Shown here in pieces: positions 1,767 through 16,784 of a DNA stretch of 64,000 nt. The notes below the pieces were generated by a model. The model saw nothing but the letters and a program-made list of their open reading frames with translations. It did no database searches and was not told the origin of the DNA. Each line of letters starts with the position of its first letter. Positions within the stretch are counted from its first letter, which is position 1. The position numbers and the translations under genes were made by a program. The DNA lies in assembly GCA_031404235.1 (NCBI GenBank), contig JANNHF010000143.1, forward strand, positions 23,999 through 87,998, written 5' to 3'. Source of the stretch: Chloroflexota bacterium (GTDB taxonomy: Bacteria; Chloroflexota; Limnocylindria; P2-11E).

Positions 1767-2423
1767 GTGTACTTCGTCATCGCCGGCGGCGGCGAGGTCG
1801 GCTTCCATCTGGCCAAGGCGCTCCTCGAGGCGTCGCACGAGGTCATGCTCCTCGAGAGTGACCGTCGCCGCGCGCAGGTCATCGCGGAACAGCTCGGGTC
1901 CGTCGTCCTCAACGCGCCGGCGGACGAGGGCCGCTACCAGCTCGAGGCCGGATGCCAGCGCGCGGATGCCGTCATCGCGGTCACCGGGGACGATCCGGTC
2001 AACCTCATCATCTGCCAGCTCGCGAAGTGGAAATGCAACGTGCCGCGCGTCATCGCGCGCGTGAACGACCCGAAGAACGAGATCGTGTTCAAGGCGCTCG
2101 GCATCGACGAGACGATCTCGTCGACGCGCGTGATCATGAACGTGATCGAGCAGGAGCTGCCCTCCGGCGGGTTCATGCCGCTGATGCCGCTCACCGGCTC
2201 GCACCTCGAGCTCATCGAAGCCGAGATCGCCGCGGGGACGCCATCCGCAGGCAGGGCGATCGGCTCGCTCGGTCTGCCCGAGGGAGCGGCGATCGGCGGC
2301 ATCGTCCGCAAGGGCGCCGTCGTGCATACGGACGACGACACGAAGCTCCAGATCGGCGACCGGATCGTGGTCCTTTCTCCGACGAAGGACGAGGCTGGGG
2401 TGCGGAAGGCGCTATTCGGCTAG
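1767..2423 (+). CDS. TrkA family K+ uptake protein (TrkA-N + TrkA-C)
   Basis: GTG start directly after previous stop; MYFVIAGGGEVGFHLAKALLEASHEVMLLESD... (RCK-N) and C-terminal GRAIGSLGLPEGAAIGGIVRKGAVVHTDDDTKLQIGDRIVVLSP (TrkA-C). Confidence 0.8.
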   Translation: MYFVIAGGGEVGFHLAKALLEASHEVMLLESDRRRAQVIAEQLGSVVLNAPADEGRYQLEAGCQRADAVIAVTGDDPVNLIICQLAKWKCNVPRVIARVNDPKNEIVFKALGIDETISSTRVIMNVIEQELPSGGFMPLMPLTGSHLELIEAEIAAGTPSAGRAIGSLGLPEGAAIGGIVRKGAVVHTDDDTKLQIGDRIVVLSPTKDEAGVRKALFG

Positions 2424-3772
2424 CGCGGCAAACCTCCGAGCGCTGCCTCCTCGACGCCGGGCATCGCGAGGCCGGAGGCGACGCTCGTGAACGCCGCCGC
2501 GTCACGCGCACGGGCGTGCGGGAAACGACGCGCGAGCAGCGCGCGGAAGGCTGGTATCGCGCTCGATCCGCCTGTCGTGACCACTTCTCCGATGTCGGTC
2601 GAGCTCACGGTGGCGCGGACCAGCACGTCGGTGATGAGCGCGTTCGTGTCGGTGAGCAGGGTGTCGATGAGGCGCTCGAAGCGCCCACGGGTGAGCCGCG
2701 CGTCCACGTCGACCGCGGCGTGGTGATACGAGAGGATCGCCGCAGGCGCGCTGGAGAGCGCGCACTTCGTGATGTCCGCGGTCATGAAGATCTCGTAGCC
2801 CAGCTGCAACTCGATCGCGCTTCGCAGCGCGGCGAGCTCGCGCTTTGGCGCGCCCTGGCGAACGAGATCATCCAGCGCTTCGAGCAGCGGCTTCTCGTTG
2901 AGCGCCGAAAGCGCGTGCCAGTCGTGGAGCGCGTTGATGATGAAGGCGGGAAGGCGCAGTCGTTTCGGTCCCCAGGTCGCGCGCGAACCCAGGTGCGGAG
3001 CGATCGCATCGTCGATCACCCGCTCGGTGCACCGATCGCCGCCGATGTCGCGGCCCGCCGTCGCGAGGACCTCGAGCCGGCTGCCCTCGCGGCGGGCCTC
3101 GCGTAGAACGATCGCCAGATCGAGCGTGCCACCCCCGAAGTCGAAGACCAGGGTGAGCCCCGGCGTGACGCTCGCCGCGTGCGCGGCGCCCACAGGCTCG
3201 AACGCGAAGCGCACTTCGTCGAAGCCGGCGAGCTCCGCCGCGCGCCGCATGCGCGAGACTGCGCGGGCCTCGGCCGCGGCGCCCCCGATGTACTCCACCG
3301 GCCGGCCGACGGTGATCTCCGACGGCGCCTCGCCGACGAGCTCGCGCACGCGTTCGCGAACGTGCGCGAGTACGACAGCGATGAGGTCCTCGAGCCCGCG
3401 GGCTTCACCGAAGACATTCGTGCGCACGTCGAGTGGCTCGCCCAGAAAGGTCTTCAGCGCCTGGAACAGCCTGCCCGGCGACGACGTGTCGGTGTAGATC
3501 TGCGCCTCGACCGTCTTCTGGCGTGGGTTCGAAGATTCGAGGCGGATGCCAAGCGGCCTGAACTCCCGGGTTATCGGGCCGCGCTGGCGGTTGTCAGCCA
3601 GATAGGCGTCGATCGCCGTCCGGCCCACGACGCTCGATCCGTCCCGCCGGACGTAGAGCACCGTCGGCATCGCGGCGCCGGCGATCGGGTCGATGGGCAA
3701 GACCGTCGAGCGCTCGCCATCCCAGACGGCGACCGACGTGTTGGATGTACCGAAGTCGAGTCCGAAGCGCAC
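2420..3772 (-). CDS. Hsp70-family nucleotide-binding-domain protein (YegD-like, ~450 aa, no substrate-binding domain)
   Basis: Within ORF 2420..4108 the actin-like ATPase phosphate-1 motif FGLDFGTSNTSVAV is preceded by an in-frame GTG (VRFGLDFG). Later LVFDFGGGTLDLAI matches the phosphate-2 motif of Hsp70. The upstream 112 codons are Arg/Ser/Pro-rich junk, so start set at GTG 3772. Confidence 0.7.
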   Translation of the reverse strand: MRFGLDFGTSNTSVAVWDGERSTVLPIDPIAGAAMPTVLYVRRDGSSVVGRTAIDAYLADNRQRGPITREFRPLGIRLESSNPRQKTVEAQIYTDTSSPGRLFQALKTFLGEPLDVRTNVFGEARGLEDLIAVVLAHVRERVRELVGEAPSEITVGRPVEYIGGAAAEARAVSRMRRAAELAGFDEVRFAFEPVGAAHAASVTPGLTLVFDFGGGTLDLAIVLREARREGSRLEVLATAGRDIGGDRCTERVIDDAIAPHLGSRATWGPKRLRLPAFIINALHDWHALSALNEKPLLEALDDLVRQGAPKRELAALRSAIELQLGYEIFMTADITKCALSSAPAAILSYHHAAVDVDARLTRGRFERLIDTLLTDTNALITDVLVRATVSSTDIGEVVTTGGSSAIPAFRALLARRFPHARARDAAAFTSVASGLAMPGVEEAALGGLPR

Positions 3773-3794
3773 GGCGCGCGATTGTCGCACCGCT

Positions 3795-4016
3795 CTAGCC
3801 GATCGCGCGCCTTCGCGCGAAGCGACGCAGCGCGACCGCGCCCCAGATCGCCTCGACGAGCGCGAATGGCCAGGTGCCGGCGAGCCACCCGTACATCGCC
3901 GCGGCCCAACAGGCCAGGCCGAACGCCAGCACGAAGTAAGGGGAGCGGTCCTCCGCGGCGTAGCACGCAAGCATGACCGCGACGCTGGCAAAGCCGAATA
4001 CCGTGAGGGGATCCAC
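3795..4016 (-). CDS. small two-helix membrane protein (hypothetical)
   Basis: C-terminal 73 aa of ORF 3795..4145 (VDPLTVFGFASVAVMLACYAAEDRSPYFVLAFGLACWAAAMYGWLAGTWPFALVEAIWGAVALRRFARRRAIG) has high GC3 and two TM helices; GTG start with GAAAGG upstream. Sits 20 nt upstream of the Hsp70-like gene on the same strand. Confidence 0.4.
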   Translation of the reverse strand: MDPLTVFGFASVAVMLACYAAEDRSPYFVLAFGLACWAAAMYGWLAGTWPFALVEAIWGAVALRRFARRRAIG

Positions 4017-4101
4017 GCACGCCTTTCTAGCCGCACTTGCGCGAGGCCGCCATCTGAGCGCCCCCCTCCAGCGGTGGGGGGTCGACACTGGGGTAAGAGT
4101 C

Positions 4102-4130
4102 TTGACAATGCTATTGGTAACTTTTATACA
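4102..4130 (+). promoter_or_regulatory. sigma-70-type promoter TTGACA-N17-TATACA in an AT-rich island; TSS predicted at or within 1-2 nt of the hspR ATG (leaderless)
   Basis: tcTTGACAatgctattggtaacttTTATACAcataagacATG: the only AT-rich stretch for kilobases. -10 ends 8 nt before ATG 4139 and there is no SD. Imperfect inverted repeat TTGACAAT/ATTGGTAA and CAATgctATTG overlap the -35 (possible HspR operator). Confidence 0.5.
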
Positions 4131-4138
4131 CATAAGAC

Positions 4139-4450
4139 ATGGCACGTGCTCAGCGGCCCGTTTACGTTATCTCCATCGCAGCCGGTCTCGCGGGCTGCCA
4201 CCCGCGCACGCTGCGGATCTATGAGGAGGAAGGCCTGCTCGAACCAGTGCGGACCGAGACCAATATCCGCCTGTACTCCGATGATGATCTGCAGCGGGTA
4301 AGGGTGATCCGTTACCTCACCCAGGTGCGTGGCGTGAATCTCGCCGGCGTCAAGCTCCTCCTGCACATGCGCGACGCCACGGACCTGATGGAGGATCTGA
4401 TGCGGGAGGTCGTGGAACTAGACACGGAGGACGAAGGCACGCGTTTCTAG
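4139..4450 (+). CDS. hspR: MerR-family heat-shock repressor HspR
   Basis: 103 aa, PVYVISIAAGLAGCHPRTLRIYEEEGLLEPVRTETNIRLYSDDDLQRVRVIRYLTQVRGVNLAGVKLLL is a MerR-type HTH typical of HspR; sits in front of lon, cbpA-like and clpB. Confidence 0.75.
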   Translation: MARAQRPVYVISIAAGLAGCHPRTLRIYEEEGLLEPVRTETNIRLYSDDDLQRVRVIRYLTQVRGVNLAGVKLLLHMRDATDLMEDLMREVVELDTEDEGTRF

Positions 4451-4507
4451 CACGACGAGCACACATCGCACCCTGGACCGAACCGCGAAAGGAAACAGAG
4501 GACCAAA

Positions 4508-6925
4508 ATGACGGACGAAACGAAGACGACCACACCGGAGGGCGGGTACCCGGGCGATCTACCGGTTGTCCCGCTGCGCGAAGCGGTCGTGTTCCCAAAG
4601 CTGGTCGTGCCCCTCGGAGTCGGCCGCGAGAAGTCCGTCGCCGCGATCAATGCCGCCATGGCGGAGGAGCGGCACCTCATCGTGCTCGTCGCCCAGCGCG
4701 ATGCCGAGATCGACGACGTTCAGCCCGAGCAGATCCACAACGTCGGCACGGTCGCGGAGATCGTGCGCCTGCTTCGCATCCCGGATGGAAGCGCGCAGAT
4801 CATCGTTCAGGGCGTCCAGCGGGTGAAGATCACCGGCTACCAGCCGGAGTCGCGGTTCTTCCGCGTCACGTTCGAGCCGATCGTCGAGGAGCTCGGCGAT
4901 CCCATCGAGCGCGAGGCGCAGCTGCGCAATGTGAAGGCCCTCTTCGAGCGCTACGTCGATAACGGCGGGTCGATCCTGCCCGAGCTCGCCATGACCGCGA
5001 AGAACACGGACGACCCGGCCCACTTCTCAGACCTGGTGGCGTCGAGCCCCGATCTCACGCTGGAGCAGCGGCAGCAGCTGCTCGAGACGCGCAACGTCAT
5101 CGAGCGCCTGCGCTTCCTCGGCGTGTTCCTCGCGAAGCAGAACGAGATCCTCGAGCTGAAGCAGAAGATCCAGAGCGAGGTCCAGCAGACGCTCGACAAG
5201 ACGCAGCGCGAGTACATCCTGCGCGAGCAGATGAAGGCCATCCAGAAGGAGCTTGGCGACGACGACCAGGGCTCCGAGGTGCGCGAGCTGCGCGAGAAGA
5301 TCGAACAGGCCGGCATGCCCGATCCGGTGAAGGAGAAGGCCCTCAAGGAGCTCGGCCGGCTCGAGAAGATCCCGCAGGCCTCGCCCGAGACCGGCGTCAT
5401 CCGCACCTATGTCGACTGGCTGGTGTCGCTACCGTGGAAAGTGGCAGCGAACGACGACTGGGACATCTCCGAGGCCGCGAAGATCCTGGACGAGGATCAC
5501 TACGGCCTGCCGAAGGTGAAGGACCGGATCATCGAGTACATGGCGGTGCGCAAGCTCTCGCAGAACCTGCGCGCCCCGATCCTGTGCTTCGTCGGCCCGC
5601 CCGGCGTCGGCAAGACGAGCCTTGGCAAGTCGATCGCGCGGGCGATGGGCCGCAAGTTCATCCGCATGTCGCTCGGCGGGATCCGTGACGAGGCCGAGAT
5701 CCGCGGGCACCGCCGCACCTACGTGGGCGCGCTCCCCGGCCGGATCCTGCAGAACATGAAGACCGCCGCTGAAGTGAACCCCGTGTTCATGCTCGACGAG
5801 ATCGACAAGGTCGGCGCGGACTTCCGCGGCGATCCGAGCTCGGCACTGCTCGAGGTGCTCGATCCCGAGCAGAACAACACCTTCTCTGACCACTACCTTG
5901 AGGTGCCGTACGACCTCTCGAAGGTCATCTTCATCACGACGGCCAACGTCGAGGACACGATCATCGCTCCGCTGCGCGACCGCATGGAGATCATCCGTCT
6001 CCCCGGATACACCGAGGATGAGAAGCTTCATATCGCGACCGGCTACCTCGTGCCCCGCCAGCTGAAGCAGCACGGCCTCGAAGACGGCCGTCTCGTGATC
6101 GTCGACGAAGTCCTTCGCGAGCTCGTCCGCCGCTACACGCGCGAGGCCGGCGTCCGAAACCTCGAGCGCGAGATCGGCACGATGTGCCGCAAGGTCGCGC
6201 GCGCGATCGCCGAGGGCAAGACCGAGAAGGTCGAGATCACGCTCGAGCACGTCGCCGAGTACCTCGGTCCGCAGCGCTTTGACTACGGCCTGGCCGAGGA
6301 AGAGGACCAGGTCGGGGCCGCGACCGGCGTCTCGGTCTCCGAGGCGGGCGGCGACGTGCTCACGGTCGAGGCCACCGTCATCGACGGCAAGGACGAGGAC
6401 TTCACGCTCACCGGCCAGATCGGCAAGGTGATGGAGGAGTCGGCTCGCGCCGCGCTCTCGTACGTGCGAAGCCACGAGCATGAGTTCGGCATCCCGAAGG
6501 GATTCTTCGAGGATCACGCGATACACATCCACGTGCCCGCGGGGGCGATCCCCAAGGACGGTCCGTCCGCCGGCGTGACGATGGCGACCGCCATCGTGTC
6601 GGCGCTCTCCGGCCGTCGCGTGCGACGCGACGTCGCGATGACCGGCGAGATCACGCTCCGCGGCCGGGTCCTGCCGATCGGCGGTGTGAAGGAGAAGCTG
6701 CTCGCGGCGCACCGCGCCGGGATCAAGACGTTCATCCTCCCCGAAAAGAACAGGAGGGACCTGATCGACATCCCCAAGGAAGTGCTCGACACGGTCGAGA
6801 TCAAGACGGTCGACAACGTCGATCAGGTGCTGAAGATCGCGCTCCAGCCAGGCCAGCCAGCGGTGACACCGGCGCAGATCGAGGCGGCCACGCACACCGG
6901 CGTCGTCCCGCCGCCCGCGCACTAG
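4508..6925 (+). CDS. lon: ATP-dependent Lon protease
   Basis: 805 aa; LON N-domain, Walker [10 protein letters not shown], catalytic Ser in [17 protein letters not shown] and Lys in [11 protein letters not shown]. Confidence 0.95.
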
Positions 6926-6967
6926 AGGGGGTTGGCAGGGGTGGCCCCGGCGCTGAAAGGGGGGTTG

Positions 6968-6985
6968 CAGGGGGTTCTCCCCCTG
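6968..6985 (+). terminator. GC hairpin downstream of lon (CAGGGGG-TTCT-CCCCCTG), no U-tract
   Basis: Perfect 7-bp stem / 4-nt loop 43 nt after the lon stop; G-rich flanks (gagggggttggcagggg...). Confidence 0.35.
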
Positions 6986-6997
6986 CGATAAACCGGT

Positions 6998-7969
6998 ATG
7001 CCGGTCGAATACAAGGACTACTACAAGACACTCGGCGTCTCGAAGAGCGCGAGCGCCGAGGAGATCAAGAAGGCATACCGCAGGCTTGCGCGCCAGCACC
7101 ACCCGGACGTCAACAAGAAGCCGGAGGCGGAGAAGCGCTTCAAGGAGGTCAACGAGGCCAACGAGGTGCTCTCCGATGCCGACAAGCGCAAGCGTTACGA
7201 CACCATCGGACCGGAGTGGGCGCGCGTCCAGAACGGTGGAGGGCGGCAGCAGCCGGGCGGATTCCAGTGGGTCTACACCGGTCAAAGCGGAGCGGATCCG
7301 TTCAACGGAGAAGCGACCGGATTCTCGGACTTCTTCCGCACGCTGTTCGGTGAGGGCGCCGCTGACATCGACACGGGCCCGCTCTTCGGCCGGCCGAGCG
7401 CGAACCGCCGGCGCCGGGCCGCGGCGGGCGCCGACGTCGAACAAGACGTCGAGATCACGCTGGCCGAGGCGTACAAGGGGACCGAGCGACAGGTGGAGCT
7501 GCGCCTCTCCGATGGAACGACGCGTCGCCTCAGCGTGAGGGTCCCGACGGGCGTGCGCGATGGCCAGCGCATCCGCCTCGCGGGACAGGGCGCACCCAGC
7601 GCCGCCGGCGGTCCCTCCGGCGACCTTTTCCTCCGAATGCGCGTTCGGCCACATCCGGTGTTCCAGCGCGACGCGGACGACCTACGCATGGAGCTGCCGG
7701 TCGCCCTGCACGAAGCGATGCTCGGCGCGGAGGTCACGGTACCGACGCTGAAGGGCCGCGTTTCACTCCGCATCCCGCCGGAGACGCAGAACGGTCGCGT
7801 CATCCGGCTCGCGGGGCAGGGGATGCCGCGCCCGACGGGCGGGCACGGCGATCTGTACGTGACGGTCAAGGTCGTGTTGCCCACGAAGCTGAGCGACAAA
7901 GAGCGCGAGCTGGTCACGGAGCTCGCGGCATCGCGCGCCGCCGACGACCCTCGCAGGGGACTCTTATGA
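6998..7969 (+). CDS. cbpA: J-domain co-chaperone, CbpA-like (DnaJ class II, no Zn-finger)
   Basis: [34 protein letters not shown] (J-domain with HPD), G/F-rich linker, two C-terminal beta domains, no CxxCxGxG repeats. Confidence 0.85.
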
Positions 7970-8012
7970 GCTTCTCTCCTGGCCGCGAGCCAGAGATTGA
8001 GCAGGTAACGAA

Positions 8013-10655
8013 ATGATCGATCCGAACAAGCTCACCGAGAAATCGCAGGAAGCCATTGTCGGCGCGCAGCAGCGCGCGCGAGACAACGGGCATAGCCAGA
8101 TCGATGTCGAGCACCTCGCCGCGGCGCTCATCGAGCAGCCAGGCGGGATCGTTCCGAGCGTGCTCACCGCCCTGGGCGTGCAGCCGGCGCAGGTGAGCAG
8201 TGCGCTGACCACCGAGCTCGAGCGCCAGCCGCACGTCTCCGGCAACGTTCAGGTCGGAGCGTCGCCGCGCCTGGGTCGCGTGTTGCAGCACGCGCAGAAG
8301 GAGGCTGAAGCCCTTGGCGACGAGTACGTCTCCACCGAACACCTCCTGCTGGCGATGACCGGTGACAACGGCTACACGGGGCAGGCACTGAAGCGCCTCG
8401 GCGTCACGCACGAGCGCGTGTTGAGCTCGCTGAAGGACATCCGGGGGAACCAGCGCGTCACCGACGCGAGCCCCGAGAACAAGTACCAGGTCCTCGAGAA
8501 GTACGGGCGTGACCTCACCGAGCTGGCTCGCAAGAACAAGATCGACCCGGTCATCGGCCGGGACGAAGAGATACGCCGCGTCATCCAAGTCTTGTCACGG
8601 CGCACCAAGAACAATCCGGTGCTGATCGGCGAGCCCGGCGTCGGCAAGACGGCGATCGTGGAGGGCCTTGCTCAGCGGATCGTTCGCGGCGACGTGCCCG
8701 AGGGCCTGAAGGACAAGCGCGTGTTCGCGCTGGACATCGGCTCGCTCCTCGCCGGAGCGAAGTACCGCGGCGAGTTCGAGGAGCGACTCAAGGCCGTACT
8801 GAAGGAGGTCGCCACCAGCGATGGCCAGATCATCCTGTTCATCGACGAGCTGCACACCGTCGTCGGGGCCGGCGCCGCCGAAGGCGCTGTCGACGCCGCG
8901 AACATGCTGAAGCCGATGCTCGCGCGCGGAGAGCTGCATGCGATCGGTGCCACGACGCTCGACGAGTACCGCAAGCACATCGAGAAGGACGCCGCGCTCG
9001 AGCGCCGCTTTCAGCCGGTCTACGTAGGGGAGCCCTCGGTCGAAGACACGATCTCGATCCTCCGTGGGCTGCGCGAGCGGTACGAGATCCATCACGGTGT
9101 CCGCATCCAGGACTCCGCCCTGGTCGCCGCCGCCACGCTTTCCGCGCGCTACATCCAGGACCGGTTCTTGCCGGACAAGGCGATCGACCTCGTCGATGAG
9201 GCCGGCTCGAAGCTACGCATGGAGATCGACTCGATGCCGGCGGAGCTCGACGAGGTCGAGCGGACCATCCGCCGCCTCGAGATCGAGCGCGAAGCGCTCA
9301 AGAAGGAGACGGATCCCGCGAGCAAGGAGCGCCTCCAGAAGCTCGAGCGGGAGCTCGCGCAGGTGAAGGAGGACAGCGCCGGTCTGCGCGCGCGTTGGCA
9401 GCAGGAGAAAGCCGCGATCCAGGAGATCAGGACGCTGCGCGAACGCATCGAGGCCGTCAAGGCTGACATCGAGAGCGCGGAGCGCACCGGCGATTACGCG
9501 AAGGCTGCCGAGCTCAAGTACGGCACCGCGGCGAACATCGAGCGCGATATCGCTCAAGCCGAGAGGAAGCTCGCGGACGTGCAGAAGACCGGGAAGATGC
9601 TCACCGAAGAGGTCACGCCGGAAGACATTGCCGATGTGGTGGGCAAGTGGACCGGCATCCCGGTCTCCAAGCTGCTCGAGGGCGAGGTCTCGAAGCTCCT
9701 GAAAATGGAGCAGCAGCTGCACTCGCGCGTCGTCGGCCAGGACGAGGCGGTCACCGCCGTCGCGAACGCGGTCCGCCGCGCACGCGCTGGCATGCAGGAC
9801 CCGAACCGTCCGCTCGGATCATTCCTCTTCCTCGGGCCGACCGGCGTGGGCAAGACGCTGCTCGCGAAGGCGCTCGCGGAGTTCCTCTTCGACGATGACA
9901 AGGCGATGGTCCGCCTCGATATGACCGAGTACATGGAGAAGCACACGGTCTCGCGGCTCATCGGCGCGCCGCCGGGCTACGTCGGCTTCGAAGAAGGCGG
10001 CCAGCTCACCGAAGCTGTCCGCCGCCGCCCGTACGCCGTTCTGCTGCTCGACGAGATCGAAAAGGCGCATCCCGACGTGTTCAACGTCCTGCTGCAGATC
10101 CTGGATGACGGACGTCTCACGGACGGGCAGGGCCGCACGGTCAGCTTCAAGAACGTCGTGATCATCATGACCAGCAACGTCGGCTCGACATTCATCACCG
10201 AGCTCGCGGAACAGCCCGACCTCCTCCGCAAGCGTGTGATGGACGCCCTCCGCGGACAGTTCCGCCCCGAGTTCCTCAACCGCGTCGACGAGATCGTCAT
10301 CTTCAAGAATCTCGTGATCGATCAGATCAAGGAGATCGTCGAGAAGGAGACGCTGATGCTCGCGAAGCGCCTTGCGGAGCGGAAGATCGCCCTCGAGCTA
10401 AGCGAGAACGCGAAGGCCTTCATCGCGAAAGAGGGCTGGGACCCTGTCTACGGCGCGCGCCCGATCAAACGCACCATCCAGCGCCTCGTCCTCGACCCGC
10501 TCGCGCAGAAGATGCTTTCCGGCGAATACAAGGAGGGCGACACCGTCGTCGTGGATGTGGAGAAGGGTAGGGTCGTCTTCTGGTCGCAGCAGTACGCCGC
10601 CGAGAAGGCCGAACAGCGCGAGAAGGACCCCGTCGGCGCGGGGAAGATGAACTAG
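8013..10655 (+). CDS. clpB: ATP-dependent chaperone ClpB
   Basis: 880 aa; two AAA modules ([18 protein letters not shown]; [19 protein letters not shown]), coiled-coil middle domain, N-terminal Clp repeats. Confidence 0.95.
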
Positions 10656-10691: not shown

Positions 10692-11792
10692 ATGAGGGTC
10701 CTCGTCGTGTTGTTCCTGGTCCTGTGCGCCGCGTGCGACGCCATACCGGGACGTGTCTACACGCTTACGGCCTCACCCACCACTGACCCTCTCGCCGTGA
10801 GCGTCGCGCCGGCGCCAAGCGCGACACCCACCGCCTCAGTCGCTCCAACTGCCACGGCTCGACCAACACCCACACCGACGCCGTCGCCGAAACCCATCGC
10901 CGAGATGCTCACGCAGATCGACCCCGCGAAGCTCGACGACCACCTGCGCGCCCTGACGTCATTCGTGTCGCGTCATCCGCTCCACCCCGGCCATGCGAAG
11001 GCCGTCGCATACCTGATGGAGCAGCTCTCCGCGATCCCGGGCGTGGTGGTCCAGGACGTCCCGACGTCGTACAACGGCGTCCGCCTCGACAACATCTTCG
11101 CGACGATCAACCCGCTCGCAGGCAGCGGGGCGGAGGGCTTCCTCGGCGGCGCGGGCATGATCAGCGCCCACTTCGACTCGACTGCGAACCGCACGCCGGG
11201 GTGGCGCCCCGCGCTGGATCCCGCCCCCGGCGCCGACGACAACGCGACCGGCACCGCGGCGCTGCTCGAGTACGCGCGGATCCTGGCCGCGGACCGCGCG
11301 TCGCTGCGCATGCCCATCGTCCTCGCGTTCTTCGACGGTGAGGAGTATTTCTTCAAGGGCAGCCTCGCGTATCTGCAGTCGCTCCCGCCGCCGAATCCGT
11401 ACCGTTGGGTGATCAACATCGACATGGTCGGATTCAATCCGCTCGCAGACCGGCTCGACCTCGTGTACTACACGCCGAACTCCGCGTCGCTGCGGGACCG
11501 TGTGAGGGACGCGAACCAGCGCTATGCGATCGGCGTCTCGCCGCTGGTCGAGCAGCTCGCGACCAGCGACGCCTTCATCCTCGACGCAGCGCCGTTCGGT
11601 CTCATCGGCGGCGTACCGTCGGTCGCGCTCGTTCAGCGCTACGGCGAGATCGACCGCACGTTCCCCGGGAACTTCACCTTCCACACGGTGGATGACACGC
11701 CAGACAAGATCACGAACAAGCGGCTTTGGCTCAAGGCCGCGAAGCTGACGCTCGCGACGGCGCTCGAGCTCGCGCGCGGAGCCCAGCTCTGA
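10692..11792 (+). CDS. M28-family zinc aminopeptidase, lipoprotein
   Basis: Signal peptide + lipobox (LVLCAAC), Pro/Thr linker, then M28 motifs (SAHFDS..., GADDNATGTAALLEYARIL, FFDGEEYFFKGS). Confidence 0.8.
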   Translation: MRVLVVLFLVLCAACDAIPGRVYTLTASPTTDPLAVSVAPAPSATPTASVAPTATARPTPTPTPSPKPIAEMLTQIDPAKLDDHLRALTSFVSRHPLHPGHAKAVAYLMEQLSAIPGVVVQDVPTSYNGVRLDNIFATINPLAGSGAEGFLGGAGMISAHFDSTANRTPGWRPALDPAPGADDNATGTAALLEYARILAADRASLRMPIVLAFFDGEEYFFKGSLAYLQSLPPPNPYRWVINIDMVGFNPLADRLDLVYYTPNSASLRDRVRDANQRYAIGVSPLVEQLATSDAFILDAAPFGLIGGVPSVALVQRYGEIDRTFPGNFTFHTVDDTPDKITNKRLWLKAAKLTLATALELARGAQL

Positions 11793-12109
11793 CCCGACGG
11801 ATCAGCCGCCGCGCCCAGCTCGCGATATTCGCGGGGCTCGCGGCGATCTTCGTGATCGCCTTTCTCTACCTGCGGCCGCCCGATGGCACGCTCAGCGACA
11901 CGGAGTACGTCGCTATGGCGAAGAGCACGGCGCAGGGACAGCTCTACTTCAAGAAGTACGACGCGCCGTGTCAGGTCATCCGTGTGTGGACGGTCCAGGT
12001 GAACTGCGACATCGTTCCGGCGGGCGCGCGTTCGACGGAGAAGTTCCGCGTCCACATCGATCCGCGCACGAACAAGGTCATCGAGGTCGAGGCGCAGTTC
12101 ACGCCCTGA
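11726..12109 (+). CDS. hypothetical protein with one N-terminal TM anchor; start uncertain
   Basis: ORF overlaps peptidase 3' end by 67 nt; convincing part begins around LTRRISRRAQLAIFAGLAAIFVIAFLYL (TM) then soluble ~80 aa. No family recognised. Confidence 0.35.
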   Translation: MAQGREADARDGARARARSPALTRRISRRAQLAIFAGLAAIFVIAFLYLRPPDGTLSDTEYVAMAKSTAQGQLYFKKYDAPCQVIRVWTVQVNCDIVPAGARSTEKFRVHIDPRTNKVIEVEAQFTP

Positions 12110-12620
12110 TGCTCTCGGCGCAGTAGATGCGTCCGAGGAAGCGACTCGGGACGCTCGCGAGCTTCCGGGTGCCGCTGAAGCCGTTCGCGTCGGCGAGCGA
12201 CCGCCAGGTCTCGAACGACAGCGGGTGGGGGACCCAGTGGTTCCCCTTGTCGGCGTCGTACTCGACGAGCAGCAGCCGTGCCGATGGCCTCAGCATGTGG
12301 TGGACGAGCGTGAGCACCTGAGCCTTGTCCTTCACGAAGTGGAGCGAGTTCGCCATCACGATGCCGTCGAGTGAGGCGAGCTCCATCGGCTTCGTGAAGT
12401 CCGCAGTGAGGGTCTGGACCGTGGCGCCGCCCGGATGAAGAGCGCGCTCGAGCTCACGCAGTGCGGCGCGGTCGCGATCGACCGCGATCACTTCGCCTTC
12501 CGTGCCGATGAGCTCCGCGAGAGCGAGCGTGAAAGCTCCGGTCCCGGCGCCGAGGTCGGCCCAAGCACCGCCCGGAGTCACGCCGCCCTTCAGGAGGCGA
12601 ACGTGGTCCGCGTGATCCAC
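12099..12620 (-). CDS. class I SAM-dependent methyltransferase
   Basis: ADLGAGTGAFTLALAELIG (motif I) ... VDRDRAAL ... DGIVMANSLHF. GTG start chosen at 12620 because it forms a TAGTG overlap with the dtd stop; the track start at 12653 would overlap dtd by 34 nt. Confidence 0.65.
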   Translation of the reverse strand: MDHADHVRLLKGGVTPGGAWADLGAGTGAFTLALAELIGTEGEVIAVDRDRAALRELERALHPGGATVQTLTADFTKPMELASLDGIVMANSLHFVKDKAQVLTLVHHMLRPSARLLLVEYDADKGNHWVPHPLSFETWRSLADANGFSGTRKLASVPSRFLGRIYCAESIRA

Positions 12621-13093
12621 TAGGTCTTGCGCCCGAGGTCTGCCTGCGCCCAACCGTCGGTCGACAGCAGCAGCGTGACCGGCCCGTCGGCCTCGAGCAC
12701 GATCCGCATGTCGGCGCCGAACCTTCCCTGCGCGACGTCGGTGCCCGCGCCCCGCAGCACGCCGCAGAAGCCTTCGAAGAGCCTCCGGCCGACCTCGGGC
12801 GGCGCCGCGGCGCTGAAGTCAGGACGCCGCCCATGGCGCACGTCGCCGTACAGGGTGAACTGGGGGATGACGAGCACGCTCCCGCCCGCGTCCTTCAGGG
12901 TGCGATCCAGGCGGCCGCGAACGTCGTCGAAGATGCGAAGGGAGAGGAGCTTGGCGGCGATCCGTTCGCCGTCCTCGGGGCGGTCGTCTCCCGCGACACC
13001 GAGCAGCACCGCGAGGCCCGGGCCGATCGTGGCGATGGTCTCATCCGCGACGTGGACGGAGACGGAGCGCACCCGCTGAACGACCGCGCGCAC
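12620..13093 (-). CDS. dtd: D-aminoacyl-tRNA deacylase
   Basis: MRAVVQRVRSVSVHV...GPGLAVLLGVAGDD...VIPQFTLYGD...GRRPDFSAAAPPE: canonical Dtd sequence features including SQFTL-like motif. Confidence 0.85.
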   Translation of the reverse strand: MRAVVQRVRSVSVHVADETIATIGPGLAVLLGVAGDDRPEDGERIAAKLLSLRIFDDVRGRLDRTLKDAGGSVLVIPQFTLYGDVRHGRRPDFSAAAPPEVGRRLFEGFCGVLRGAGTDVAQGRFGADMRIVLEADGPVTLLLSTDGWAQADLGRKT

Positions 13094-13110
13094 CTCTCGC
13101 GAGCCTGTCT

Positions 13111-13383
13111 CTAGTCCAGCATCCAGGGGTTGTCCCCGCGAACGACGGACTCGACCTCGCTCGCGGAAAGATGCCCGGGCGCGAACACCGTCATGCTCTT
13201 TTCCAGCGGCAGCCGCGTGACATACGTGACCTTGCCGAAGCGGTAGCCGTGCTGGAACAGGAACGGCTTTCCCTCGATGTCGAGGCGTTGGCGGCGATCG
13301 GTGGATGTAGCGGGCACGTCGCCAGTATGGAGAACGGCCCGCCGGTCCGCCGCTGGCGCTACTCGGACAGCGGCCAGAACCAC
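13111..13383 (-). CDS. hypothetical small protein (start uncertain, probably shorter than the ORF)
   Basis: Only the C-terminal ~55 aa (LDIEGKPFLFQHGYRFGKVTYVTRLPLEKSMTVFAPGHLSASEVESVVRGDNPWMLD) look protein-like. Upstream codons overlap the small secreted peptide gene. Confidence 0.3.
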   Translation of the reverse strand: MVLAAVRVAPAADRRAVLHTGDVPATSTDRRQRLDIEGKPFLFQHGYRFGKVTYVTRLPLEKSMTVFAPGHLSASEVESVVRGDNPWMLD

Positions 13384-13538
13384 GGCAGGATCGGCGCGAT
13401 GTTGGGGAGCCCGGGGTCGTACGGCACGCTGTCGGCCCCGGCGCCGCCAGCGTTCGCAGACGCCACGTCCGCGGTCATTACGACGAGCAACGCGGCGAGA
13501 ACGGCCGCGCGCAGGAGTCGCGTGCGAAGTGGTTTCAC
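13359..13538 (-). CDS. unannotated 59-aa secreted pro-peptide (Sec signal peptide + 31-aa Trp/Pro-rich tail)
   Basis: GTG at 13538..13536 preceded by aGGGGAGAcagag (SD, 6-nt spacer). Translation MKPLRTRLLRAAVLAALLVVMTADVASA|NAGGAGADSVPYDPGLPNIAPILPWFWPLSE then TAG at 13361..13359. n/h/c regions and AxA site of a type I signal peptide; GC3 ~85 %. Not in the ORF track because it is short with a GTG start. Confidence 0.45.
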   Translation of the reverse strand: MKPLRTRLLRAAVLAALLVVMTADVASANAGGAGADSVPYDPGLPNIAPILPWFWPLSE

Positions 13539-13686
13539 CTCTGTCTCCCCTCGTTCCCCTCCCCCGTTCGGCGGATGCGCCGCCTGCGGGGGGTTGGCTA
13601 TCGTCGGGCGAGTCTACGAACGCTGAACTTGGCGGCGCAAGGTGAAACAGTCCGCCTGGCTGTCAGTTCGGTGACATTGGAGCGAT

Positions 13687-14997
13687 GTGACGACTACCGA
13701 CACGCTGGCGAAACCGAACGGAGCGAATGGACTCGGGGCCCGCGTGCGTGAAGCGCGACGCGAACGAGGCATGAGTCAGGCTCAGCTCGCGGGCGACGAA
13801 CTCACCAAGGGCTTCATCAGTCAGGTCGAGTCCGGCCTCGTCCGCCCCTCCGTCCGTTCCCTTCAGATCCTCGCGGCGCGCCTTAGCAAGAGTCTCGACT
13901 ACTTCCTCGGCGACGAACCGCTTGCGACGTCGAAGCGGCTCGTTTTCCACCGTTTGGCCGCGGAGGCCGCGGCGGAGCGGCGGGATTGGACCGTCGTTCG
14001 CGACGAGGTGACGGCGGCACTTGCCGCCAAGCCCGAGAAACGCGAGCGCGCGGCGCTGCTGCGCTTCCTGGCGCAGGCGGAGATGAACACCGGTAATCGT
14101 GAGGTTGCCTTCGACCGTATCGGCGAGGCGCTGTCCCTGATCGACGCGGCCACCGACGCGGGCGAGGTCGCCCACCTTCTGCACCTGCGCGGCATCGCCT
14201 ACGGCCAGATCGGCCAGTACGTGGCCGCGGCCGAGGCGCTGGAATCGGCGCGGGATGCCATGGAGCGCCACGAGGTCAGCGACCCGCGTCTGCGCGCACG
14301 CATCCTCGTCGCGCTGGGGACGGCATACCGCCGTTTGAACCGCTCTGCCAAGGCCATGCAGACATACGTCTCGGCCCTGGATCTCGCGAGCGGGATCGAC
14401 GAGCTGCGCCTTGCGGCGCAGGGCTACATGGGCGTTGCGGTGTCGCTCTACGACGCTGGCGAGCTGGACGGCGCGATCGCGAACTATCGCCGTGCGCTCG
14501 ATCTCTTCACGCGCGTCGAGGACACGACGTTCCAACTGCAGGTGCTCCACTCGCTGTCGTCGATCCACTTCGAGATGGGCAAGACCGACGAGGCGCGCGA
14601 GCTGGCCCAGCGTGGTGCGGCCACGGCACGCATGGTCCACGACGAGGGCATGGTCGTCGTCGCGGAGCTCGTGCTCGCGCGTATCGCGCTCACCAGCGGC
14701 GATGCCGAGCAGGCGCTGAACATCGCGCGGCACGCCGAGAAGATCCTCACCGATCAGCCCGTGCAGCGCGCCGACGCGCTGCGCGTCATCGGCGCCGCAC
14801 AGGACGCCCTCAAGTCGTTCACCGCGAGCGACCGCGCTTATCGGAAGGCCATCGAGCTTCTCGTGGAGGTCGGTGACCACCCGAACCTCTCGACGTTCGC
14901 CGCTGAGTACGCGATGAAGCTTCGCGCGCGCGGCGAGACCGATCAGGCGTTCCGCTACCTCGAGCTCGCGCGAACACCGGTGACAAACCGGACCTAG
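13687..14997 (+). CDS. XRE-family HTH + TPR-repeat transcriptional regulator (RRNPP/Rgg-like architecture)
   Basis: GTG start with GGAG 5 nt upstream; N-terminus LGARVREARRERGMSQAQLAG...ISQVESGLVRPSVRSLQILAARLSKSLDYF is a Cro/C1-type HTH. The remaining ~360 aa are helical repeats with TPR-like periodicity (ALGTAYRRLNRSAKAMQTYVSALDL...). Confidence 0.8.
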   Translation: MTTTDTLAKPNGANGLGARVREARRERGMSQAQLAGDELTKGFISQVESGLVRPSVRSLQILAARLSKSLDYFLGDEPLATSKRLVFHRLAAEAAAERRDWTVVRDEVTAALAAKPEKRERAALLRFLAQAEMNTGNREVAFDRIGEALSLIDAATDAGEVAHLLHLRGIAYGQIGQYVAAAEALESARDAMERHEVSDPRLRARILVALGTAYRRLNRSAKAMQTYVSALDLASGIDELRLAAQGYMGVAVSLYDAGELDGAIANYRRALDLFTRVEDTTFQLQVLHSLSSIHFEMGKTDEARELAQRGAATARMVHDEGMVVVAELVLARIALTSGDAEQALNIARHAEKILTDQPVQRADALRVIGAAQDALKSFTASDRAYRKAIELLVEVGDHPNLSTFAAEYAMKLRARGETDQAFRYLELARTPVTNRT

Positions 14998-15032
14998 CGC
15001 GAGCTCCTCCCGCCCTCGCGTACCATCGCCTC

Positions 15033-16784
15033 GTGCCCCGCGATGCCGTCACGTACGACAACGAAGGCGTCGCCGCGGTCCTTGATGAGATCGGCGATCT
15101 CCTTGAGCTGAAGGGCGAGAACGTCTTCCGCGCCGTCACGTATCGCGCGGTCGCGCGCGCCATCCGAGATCTGCGCGAGCCCATCGCGACGCTGGTCGAG
15201 CAGGATCGCCTCGCCGAGATCCCCAAGGTGGGTCCGTCGGTGCGCGACGCGATCACGCAGCTCGTGAGCACGGGCACTTCGCTGCGCCACGAGGAGCTGA
15301 AGGCCGCGGTGCCGTCCGGACTCATCACGCTCCTGCGCGTGCCGGGCGTCGGGCCGGCGACGGCCCGGATCATCTACGACAACCTGAAGATCACGACCGT
15401 CGACGAGCTGGAGGAGGCGGCGAAAGCCCATCGCCTGCGTGAGCTCCCGAAGATCCAGGCGAAGACCGAGGAGAACATCCTGAGGTCGATCGCGTCGCTG
15501 AAACAGCGCACCGGCCGGAACCTCGTCCATCACGCGCGGGCCGCGGCGACGTCGATGGTGGACTGGCTGCGGCAGGAGACCGGGACCCGGGCGGTCGGGG
15601 TCGCGGGAAGTCTGCGTCGCTACCGGGAGACGATCGGCGACGTCGATCTCCTCGTCGCCTCCGTCGCGGCCGCACCGATCATGGACGCGTTCGTCCGGGC
15701 GCCTTCGGTCGAGCGCGTGCTGGCACACGGCGAGACGAAGACCTCGGTCATCGTCGCGCGTGGGCTGCAGATCGACCTCCGCGTCGTCCCGCCCGAGTCG
15801 TGGGGCGCCGCGCTCCTCTATTTCACGGGCTCGAAGGAGCACAACGTGCGGCTGCGTGGCCACGCGCTGAAGAAGAAGCTGCTGCTCAACGAATACGGCC
15901 TCTATCGGGTCGGCGCCGAGGCGCGCGGCCAGGAGATCGCGTCACGGACCGAGGAGGACATCTACGCCGCGCTCGGCATGGACTGGATCGCGCCGGAGCT
16001 ACGCGAGGACCACGGCGAGATCGACGCTGCGATCGCGCACGCCCTGCCGACGCTCGTGACGCTTCCAGAGATGCGCGGCGACCTCCATACCCACACGAAC
16101 TGGACCGACGGTCGCGACACGCTGGCCGACATGGCACGTCGCGCGCGCGACAAGGGCTACGCGTATTACGCCGTCACCGACCACTCGCCGGGTCTCGGTA
16201 TGACGAACGGCCTGGGCGCGGAGCGCATCACCGCACGCGTCGAGGAGGCGCGGCGGCTCAACCTGGAGCTCGCGCCGTTCAGGATCCTCGTCGGCACCGA
16301 AGTGGACATCCGCGCGAACGGAGCGCTCGACTACCCCGACGACATGCTGGCGCGCTTCGACATCGTCAGCGCGTCGGTGCACTCGGCGTTCGGCCAGACG
16401 CGCGAGATCATGACCGAGCGCGTGCTCACCGCGATGCGGCATCCCTTGGTCACCGCGATCTCACACCCGACAGGGAGGCTGCTCGAACGGCGCGATCCGC
16501 ATGCGCTCGACCTCCAGGCGCTCATCGACGCCGCCGCGGAGACGGGCACGTGGATCGAGATCAACGGCGGACCCGAACGGCTCGACTTGCCGGATACCTG
16601 GGTCCGTAAGGCCCTCGACAAGGGCGTCACGCTCGTCGCGAACTCCGACGCGCATTCGATCGAGGAGCTCGACTGGATGGAATACGCCGTCGCGAACGCG
16701 CGCCGTGGCTGGACGCCGCGCGGAGCGCTCGCGAACACTTCGGAGCTGGACGAGATGCTCACGAGGCGCAAGCGCCGCGGATGA
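15033..16784 (+). CDS. polX: family X DNA polymerase with C-terminal PHP domain (PolX)
   Basis: 583 aa; HhH and Pol-beta-like N-terminal half (GSLRRYRETIGDVDLLV), C-terminal PHP motifs (DLHTHTNWTDG, AVTDHSP, NSDAHS). Confidence 0.9.
   Translation: MPRDAVTYDNEGVAAVLDEIGDLLELKGENVFRAVTYRAVARAIRDLREPIATLVEQDRLAEIPKVGPSVRDAITQLVSTGTSLRHEELKAAVPSGLITLLRVPGVGPATARIIYDNLKITTVDELEEAAKAHRLRELPKIQAKTEENILRSIASLKQRTGRNLVHHARAAATSMVDWLRQETGTRAVGVAGSLRRYRETIGDVDLLVASVAAAPIMDAFVRAPSVERVLAHGETKTSVIVARGLQIDLRVVPPESWGAALLYFTGSKEHNVRLRGHALKKKLLLNEYGLYRVGAEARGQEIASRTEEDIYAALGMDWIAPELREDHGEIDAAIAHALPTLVTLPEMRGDLHTHTNWTDGRDTLADMARRARDKGYAYYAVTDHSPGLGMTNGLGAERITARVEEARRLNLELAPFRILVGTEVDIRANGALDYPDDMLARFDIVSASVHSAFGQTREIMTERVLTAMRHPLVTAISHPTGRLLERRDPHALDLQALIDAAAETGTWIEINGGPERLDLPDTWVRKALDKGVTLVANSDAHSIEELDWMEYAVANARRGWTPRGALANTSELDEMLTRRKRRG

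Follow-up and report, generated by a model that had tools for sequence, protein, structure and literature searches.

Peptide signalling through cytoplasmic tetratricopeptide repeat (TPR) receptors of the RRNPP type is treated as a Firmicutes speciality. Large RRNPP surveys analysed Firmicutes genomes only (PMC10075063), and a structural phylogeny of RRNPPA is also set in a Bacillota frame. One preprint lists uncharacterised small-peptide and TPR pairs 'including non-Firmicutes' in human-associated genomes, and a search of the literature turned up no paper that connects RRNPP systems or peptide quorum sensing to Chloroflexi, Chloroflexota or Limnocylindria. In NprR-NprX of the Bacillus cereus group, a receptor of ~420-440 aa with an N-terminal XRE-type helix-turn-helix (HTH) and about nine TPR-like repeats is accompanied by an adjoining gene for a Sec-exported pro-peptide of ~40-60 aa. 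The active NprX heptapeptide is internal, not strictly C-terminal. Here we describe a locus of the same layout in a 64,000-nucleotide stretch of DNA (the window; contig JANNHF010000143.1 of assembly GCA_031404235.1, positions 23,999 to 87,998) from a soil bacterium of Candidatus Limnocylindria, in the monoderm phylum Chloroflexota: a gene for a 59-aa exported pro-peptide, transcribed divergently from the gene for a 436-aa HTH-TPR regulator (Table 1). On balance, and with modest confidence, we favour an RRNPP-like, NprR/NprX-style receptor-pheromone module that has been inherited vertically in a non-Firmicutes class, and for which we infer peptide binding, import and output.

The small gene was first recognised in a preliminary description of the window as a 59-codon minus-strand open reading frame (ORF) opening with a GTG behind a GGGGAGA motif. 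Its ends, exact translation and Shine-Dalgarno sequence were confirmed, as were the high GC content at third codon positions, given as ~85% (0.72, 0.53 and 0.87 at the three codon positions), and the n-h-c layout of a type I signal peptide with a VASA-NA site. The n-region contains the basic residues K2, R5, R7 and R10, and is followed by a Leu/Ala/Val h-region and an AxA-type site. The ORF had also been called unannotated; the exact 59-aa protein is indeed unnamed, but is already a called gene in NCBI and Logan assemblies, and it was therefore overlooked rather than strictly unannotated. A genome scan with one genome per species recovered 25 orthologous loci (regulator identity from 96% down to 51%), nearly all labelled as Candidatus Limnocylindria/Chloroflexota metagenome-assembled genomes (MAGs), with two labelled Candidatus Acidiferrales and Candidatus Dormiibacterota. 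A metagenome scan added ~70 soil loci. Taking genomes and metagenomes together, 93 loci had enough upstream DNA (regulator identity from 96% down to 48%), and all 93 have a divergent small ORF of 43-97 aa at the same position, ~150 bp from the regulator gene. The basic n-region, hydrophobic h-region and AxA-like site are retained in every orthologue.

High-GC genomes yield many spurious ORFs, and the small ORF might have been a chance open frame over a conserved non-coding element. This explanation is effectively refuted: all 93 loci agree in frame, Shine-Dalgarno sequence, start codon and signal-peptide layout, and the substitution pattern is that of a protein. Using the Nei-Gojobori method on a close clade of 14 loci (regulators 92-96% identical), we obtained a dN/dS of 0.01 for the segment VPYDPGLP (dS 0.96, dN 0.008), against 0.46 for the signal peptide, 0.93 for the linker and 0.81 for the C-terminal tail. 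These values are pairwise sums and phylogenetically non-independent, with a contrast of ~100-fold between core and flanks. Baselines in the same clade were 0.064 for the regulator and 0.092 for p68, the 68-aa protein encoded downstream. Since the eight core codons are synonymously saturated while their amino acids are fixed, a non-coding explanation is excluded. The expectation that the small ORF would be conserved under purifying selection beside orthologous regulators thus held, and the data support its identification as a genuine gene that is conserved and codes for an exported peptide. The plus strand has two long ORFs (151 and 122 aa) across the peptide and p68 genes; as selection clearly acts on the minus-strand frames, they are most likely high-GC artefacts.

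Purifying selection also relocates the presumptive signal. The C-terminal segment APILPWFW, first proposed as the active part, lies in the nearly neutral tail and is unique to this genome, while the constraint falls on the internal VPYDPGLP. Tails of close relatives read ...DPGLPSIQE to the stop codon or are unrelated Pro-rich ends. All 25 genome loci have the same DPG, set in [VLF]-P-x-D-P-G-x, and in relatives the core [VLF]-P-x-D-P-[GW] is either C-terminal or present in 2-4 tandem copies. Of 92 tallied precursors, 80 have a canonical x-P-x-D-P-[GW] core: 45 contain a single copy, 22 two, 9 three and 4 four, which makes 35 relatives with a repeated core. The remaining precursors comprise nine with variant cores (e.g. 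IDPG[FG], SPDDGGG or DPADPP) and three that diverge further. The last core lies 1-6 residues before the C-terminus in 62/84 precursors. Core number differs between loci with regulators 93-95% identical (one copy in the window, three in L030, four in L033), and in L111 the predicted mature product consists of nothing but three tandem nonamers, FPSDPGVEG-FPSDPGFES-FPSDPGWD, from the predicted cleavage site onward. Such a precursor, Sec-exported and built around a short, constrained and sometimes amplified unit, is what would be expected of a proteolytically released oligopeptide. The selection pattern, with a short constrained core that is tandem in relatives and clade-specific, supports a processed signalling pro-peptide.

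Other features of the precursors were also recorded. Nine loci (L017, L021, L039, L044, L068, L083, L087, L088 and L097), among many relatives, have a predicted mature N-terminus of the form ...SA/DPG..., and this DPG is additional to the downstream cores. The window and L004, L005, L009, L011, L013 and L028 share a loose tail pattern, in which Pro-rich sequence leads to a Trp and then to an x(2-3)-[ST]-E end; it is weakly constrained (the tail value above), and many precursors of other clades likewise end in Glu. The sorting signals PEP-CTERM, PGF-CTERM and LPXTG were dismissed, as no C-terminal transmembrane segment follows the motif. A scan of the whole window for signal-peptide mini-ORFs and P-x-D-P-G/W motifs found none besides the 59-aa gene.

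The assignment of the divergent 436-aa protein as an HTH-TPR regulator was upheld by Pfam matches to HTH_3 (residues 20-73, E 5.6e-8), TPR_12 (E 2e-24) and TPR_MalT (E 1e-17), and by an AlphaFold2 model built with 37 homologues (mean pLDDT 87.6), in which the HTH at residues 16-74 is followed by 18 helices with a 40-residue period over residues 81-429. The protein has neither a signal peptide nor a transmembrane segment, its N-terminus being the HTH. Structural comparison gave figures of 29.6 for LGN, 28.0 for Pins and 27.8 for RapI (342 residues aligned), followed by MalT domain III (24.6), RapH (23.3), pLS20 Rap (22.9), phi105 Rap (22.2), PlcR (21.7), NprR (18.9) and AimR (17.4), and Foldseek agreed with this picture. 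The closest bacterial structural matches are therefore Rap, MalT domain III and PlcR. A profile search against PDB chains returned RapJ (E 9e-8), the PlcR HTH (1e-5) and, as a weak match, the ComR HTH (1e-4) among many generic TPR proteins, and the automatic annotation of the Joint Genome Institute (JGI) names three regulator homologues 'quorum sensing regulator NprR'. The structural comparison that had first been suggested matched the regulator to Rap and PlcR, but to LGN/Pins and MalT domain III as well. With a eukaryotic protein, LGN, among the equally good matches, we regard homology to RRNPP as unproven; the modelled fold is a peptide-wrapping TPR superhelix whose nearest solved bacterial proteins are RRNPP receptors, a likeness that is not specific for homology. 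Helices 200-277 of the TPR domain contain an invariant Arg/Tyr cluster (R201, R203, R205, Y214, R215, R216, R219, Y267 and R269), which could hold the invariant Asp-Pro-Gly of the peptide.

If the peptide were the ligand of the regulator, the two might be expected to change together. Clustering of 58 full-length regulators gave clades that each have a core of their own: PYDPG[LF]P, P[AT]DPGY, PVDPGY, PEDPG[LIFV], PDDPGY and PEDPGFGG, with FPEDPW, FPSDPGEP, DPGDPGLPPD, SPDDGGG and IDPG[FG] in further clades. Clade-specific cores are expected from co-inheritance as well as from co-evolution. Within a clade sharing one core, the regulator is ~94% identical, above dtd (86%) and PolX (91%), two of its neighbours, whereas between clades with different cores it drops to 54-59%, below dtd (~67%) and PolX (70-76%). 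This reversal of rates is a further hint, as it fits a receptor that changes in bursts together with its ligand. Only two candidates came out of a search for specificity-determining positions in the regulator, which was uninformative.

The two genes share a control region of 148 bp (13539-13686), slightly longer than the 146 bp first reported. The imperfect inverted repeat noted there is present, and on the minus strand its hairpin would belong to the leader of the peptide mRNA, immediately 5' of the Shine-Dalgarno sequence. Most of 23 loci form a hairpin at this position, with differing stem sequences and a mean z of -2.3 against shuffles. RNAalifold on the 23 leader sequences found no consistent consensus structure and no compensatory pairs, and Rfam had no match over 13000-13800; as the recurrent hairpin comes only from per-sequence folding, we claim no conserved RNA element. 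Conservation of primary sequence is more pronounced: the intergenic alignment has fixed blocks, CCCCCGTTCGGCGGATTG, GTTGGCTATCGTC, GAGTCTACGAACGCTGAAC and TGTCAGTTCGGTGACA, despite saturated synonymous sites. The block GAGTCTACGAACGCTGAAC occurs once in the window against 0 expected and contains AGTCTA, which is retained in most clades down to ~50% regulator identity and reads TAGACT on the minus strand, a putative -10-like element for the peptide operon. A scan of 12500-15200 for terminators and sigma-70 promoters found nothing, and our promoter assignments, made by eye, are for this reason tentative. The palindrome TGTCAGTTCGGTGACA is kept with at most two changes at the same position in all sampled clades with at least 71% regulator identity, and also in L062; taken alone, the one occurrence in the window lacks significance (48/100 shuffles). 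Mean column conservation of the regulator is 0.90 in the HTH and 0.74 in the TPR domain. Since the HTH is nearly invariant class-wide, all clades should read much the same operator, and we consider the sequence-conserved palindrome a better candidate for it than the variable hairpin.

The next gene after the peptide gene, wherever a locus extends far enough, encodes p68 (MPATSTDRRQRLDIEGKPFLFQHGYRFGKVTYVTRLPLEKSMTVFAPGHLSASEVESVVRGDNPWMLD) and is followed by dtd. As no terminator-like site was found, peptide, p68 and dtd probably form one transcription unit, and p68 is the likeliest candidate for a dedicated output gene of the module. Its product had no match in Pfam, NCBIfam, PADLOC or PHROG and forms only 14 representative clusters among 1.84 billion proteins. 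It is confined to the lineage, with 78-96% identity across most of the class and ~52-57% in the most divergent loci, and was modelled with low confidence as four strands and a helix. These properties could also mean that p68, or some other protein, is the partner of the TPR domain, in a pair of regulator and small-protein modulator, comparable to XRE-type regulators with small partners, for which the exported peptide would be separate operon cargo: p68 is always present, is under purifying selection (dN/dS 0.09), is as lineage-restricted as the regulator, is encoded just 41 nt from the peptide gene, and LGN/Pins, the best structural matches of the regulator, bind protein segments. We regard this arrangement as improbable, as p68 remains 78-94% identical between clades in which the regulator TPR domain is down to 51-59%, unlike tightly co-evolving partners, and its low-confidence model has no informative fold match.

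The surroundings of the module are syntenic throughout the class, in the order M28 peptidase, hyp127, methyltransferase, dtd, p68, peptide, regulator, PolX, acylphosphatase, membrane protein and purH. Two loci, L109 and L110, depart from this order: both flanks are rearranged, yet regulator, peptide, p68 and dtd are intact, the peptide core is VDDGGQPGP, methyltransferase and hyp127 are missing, and a 452-aa HTH-TPR gene stands in the place of PolX, tail-to-tail with the regulator. In L109 the M28 peptidase directly follows dtd. This peptidase, with a lipoprotein-like N-terminus (MRVLVVLFLVLCAAC...), is encoded ~1.5 kb from the peptide gene in the window and is syntenic class-wide; it could process the pro-peptide, to which proximity is its only link. 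Tandem conserved cores with variable spacers, and a class I S-adenosylmethionine (SAM) methyltransferase and the M28 lipoprotein peptidase within 3 kb, are also what a multi-core precursor of a ribosomally synthesized and post-translationally modified peptide (RiPP) might show, with enzymatically modified cores and a pathway-specific regulator. We consider such a pathway very improbable here: within ~3 kb on either side there is no recognisable maturase, the matches in Pfam being housekeeping-type or none; the neighbours are p68, dtd, PolX, purH and a generic SAM methyltransferase, the last of which is missing in the rearranged loci that keep the pair; and the precursor has a Sec-type signal peptide as its leader, which is not usual for RiPPs.

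Several observations weigh against the receptor-pheromone interpretation. With the whole 8-kb neighbourhood syntenic class-wide, the constant adjacency of peptide and regulator is weaker evidence and may simply reflect vertical inheritance, and among-site rate heterogeneity could mimic the reversal of regulator rates. None of the RRNPP-specific Pfam or NCBIfam models matches the regulator. According to a passage in PMC4794775, citing Declerck 2007, RRNPP receptors have highly conserved Asn residues on the concave TPR face that hold the peptide backbone; no Asn in the regulator TPR domain is invariant, the nearest being N266 (48/58) and N218 (38/58). No oligopeptide permease (SBP_bac_5/Opp-like) was found among the scanned ORFs of the window. 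The system is single-copy, chromosomal and set beside housekeeping genes, while RRNPP systems are often accessory. Its loci come from Limnocylindria/Chloroflexota MAGs and soil metagenomes, outside the host range of RRNPP in Firmicutes and mobile elements. Membership of the RRNPP or Rgg families by homology, as first proposed, is not supported at present; what stands is an HTH-TPR regulator with an adjoining exported-peptide gene in a high-GC lineage outside Firmicutes.

Some of the same observations fit a genuine, processed and exported peptide that the regulator does not bind. It would have an extracellular role of its own (e.g. binding of envelope, matrix or metal, or antagonism) or be sensed at the cell surface, while the HTH-TPR protein would only control the divergent operon in answer to another cue or protein partner. 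Under class-wide synteny adjacency needs no functional explanation, the generic TPR fold matches protein-binding TPRs such as LGN and subunits of the anaphase-promoting complex (APC) as well as it does Rap, the scanned window ORFs include no Opp transporter, and a paralogous 439-aa HTH-TPR protein in the window, 29% identical to the regulator over 280 residues, has no adjoining signal-peptide mini-ORF. We nevertheless find this possibility unlikely: the divergent pair shares a conserved control region and is retained where both flanks are rearranged, core type follows regulator clade, the regulator changes fastest exactly where the core changes, and a constrained tandem core of 6-8 residues is hard to square with a structural role.

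If the receptor-pheromone interpretation is right, the pro-peptide would be exported by Sec and cut after VASA, and extracellular proteases would free a core of 6-9 residues, [VLF]-P-x-D-P-[GW]-x, from precursors that in relatives hold 2-4 copies. Prolines at position 2 and near the end would shield the core from exopeptidases. The peptide would build up with cell density, enter through an oligopeptide permease and sit in the concave channel of the regulator TPR domain, where the Arg/Tyr cluster is a plausible pocket for Asp-Pro-Gly and the variable helices 101-113 and 300-353 could read the clade-specific core flanks. Binding would alter occupancy of the intergenic operator by the HTH dimer, and this occupancy would set transcription of the regulator and of a peptide-p68-dtd-methyltransferase unit. 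As an argument from sequence alone the case is strong, the steps of the signalling loop being what we infer. We see about an even chance that it represents cytoplasmic-receptor peptide quorum sensing outside Firmicutes as a core, vertically inherited trait of a class, with 1-4 core copies, a 68-aa output protein and co-diversifying 'dialects'. Such a system would be either an ancient RRNPP branch or an independent invention from generic TPR scaffolds.

Table 1. Coordinates, in window positions, of the peptide-regulator locus and of other features mentioned in the text.
Feature	Position	Strand	Remarks
59-aa pro-peptide gene	13359..13538	-	GTG start at 13538; orthologous ORF in 93/93 loci
Pro-peptide product	13359..13538	-	MKPLRTRLLRAAVLAALLVVMTADVASA / NAGGAGADS / VPYDPGLP / NIAPILPWFWPLSE
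Sec-type signal peptide, codons 1-28	13455..13538	-	predicted cleavage VASA/NA, from layout
Conserved core VPYDPGLP, residues 38-45	13404..13427	-	candidate mature signalling peptide
Variable tail NIAPILPWFWPLSE and stop codon	13359..13403	-	dN/dS 0.81; absent or different in close relatives
Shine-Dalgarno sequence GGGGAGA	13544..13550	-	5 nt before GTG; same spacing in 25/25 genome loci
Imperfect inverted repeat/hairpin	13561..13593		arms 13561-13574 and 13580-13593; minimum free energy -31.5 kcal/mol, z -2.06
Non-coding block GAGTCTACGAACGCTGAAC	13610..13628		invariant in 23-locus alignment
Perfect palindrome TGTCAGTTCGGTGACA	13661..13676		abuts regulator Shine-Dalgarno sequence; candidate operator for HTH dimer
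436-aa cytoplasmic regulator	13687..14997	+	HTH and 40-residue-repeat TPR superhelix
Regulator HTH region, residues 16-74	13732..13908	+	
Regulator TPR superhelix, residues 81-429	13927..14973	+	
p68, 68-aa orphan protein	13111..13317	-	41 nt downstream of peptide gene
dtd, D-aminoacyl-tRNA deacylase	12620..13093	-	17 nt downstream of p68; Pfam Tyr_Deacylase E 2e-47
Class I SAM methyltransferase	12099..12653		
M28 peptidase	10692..11792	+	
ORF of 151 aa	13171..13626	+	overlaps peptide and p68 genes
ORF of 122 aa	13277..13645	+	overlaps peptide and p68 genes
Family X DNA polymerase (PolX) with PHP domain	15033..16784	+	
Protein quality-control cluster	2420..10655		
Second HTH-TPR regulator, 439 aa	24297..25616	+	
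ORF of 599 aa	34575..36374	+	
ORF of 568 aa	46920..48626	+	

Further genes of the window were noted in passing. The family X DNA polymerase lies immediately 3' of the regulator and is followed by an acylphosphatase-sized ORF and purH, and the order from regulator to purH is conserved in nearly all loci. A protein quality-control cluster lying just upstream of this region encodes an Hsp70-like protein, Lon protease, DnaJ and ClpB. The two large ORFs of 599 and 568 aa (GC3, the GC content at third codon positions, 0.82-0.83) have no Pfam match at E <= 1e-5. Among remote regulator-like matches outside the class, L099-L107 appear by eye to be HTH proteins with a cupin-type domain in which only the HTH matches, and in L027, from an Actinoplanes relative, no convincing exported peptide adjoins the regulator-like gene; the family could therefore not be traced beyond Limnocylindria.

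If our interpretation is true, a further monoderm phylum communicates between cells in this way, in a dominant, largely uncultured soil lineage, which would offer a natural series of receptor and peptide variants for studies of specificity. The reagents are cheap (an 8-residue peptide, a 436-aa soluble protein and 148 bp of DNA) and would permit testing without cultivation. The analysis also provides a recipe for pro-peptides in general: selection on a few codons, together with variation in core copy number, locates the active part better than position in the ORF.

Compared with described systems, the module combines three of the features by which RRNPP is recognised, a TPR-type sensor, an N-terminal XRE-type HTH and an adjoining gene for an exported pro-peptide, with several that are its own. 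In Rap-Phr of Bacillus and its phages and plasmids, the pro-peptide likewise joins a Sec signal peptide to a short mature peptide, of which some Phr precursors contain more than one copy. Rap, however, has no HTH and acts as a phosphatase or anti-activator, with phr downstream and co-directional, whereas the module has an HTH and is divergent. In Rgg2/3-SHP and ComR-ComS of streptococci, an HTH and helical-repeat receptor is likewise paired with a short peptide gene, and the divergent orientation of the module is that of Rgg2/3-SHP2/3. SHP and ComS peptides are ~17-35 aa long, have no classical Sec signal peptide and use PptAB/Eep. Rgg receptors are ~280 aa with a shorter repeat domain, while the module has a 436-aa receptor with a 350-aa TPR domain and a 59-aa peptide with a full n-h-c Sec signal, so that orientation is the only point of agreement with the Rgg/SHP subfamily.

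PlcR-PapR and AimR-AimP-AimX share with the module an HTH-TPR receptor and a Sec-exported pro-peptide with a C-terminal active part, and many Limnocylindria orthologues end right after the core, as precursors of the PapR/AimP type do. The output may be encoded by a small gene further downstream, as with arbitrium aimX, though p68, unlike aimX, encodes a conserved protein; PlcR-PapR and arbitrium are accessory or mobile and Firmicutes-restricted, and their peptides are unrelated. Tandem short cores with spacers in one secreted precursor recall yeast alpha-factor, a functional analogy with a eukaryotic system that implies no evolutionary link, the copies in the module having no Kex2-like dibasic sites between them. 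The TPR-peptide complexes of LGN/Pins, also eukaryotic, are a structural analogy only. Against NprR-NprX, the module is found in Chloroflexota rather than Firmicutes, its genes are divergent rather than co-directional, its core x-P-x-D-P-G/W is unrelated to SKPDIVG and tandem in relatives, it is without the invariant Asn and with a constant additional 68-aa gene, and it is known here from its sequence. What is new relative to RRNPP is thus the phylum, the core motif, the tandem cores and the extra constant gene; the logic itself is known.

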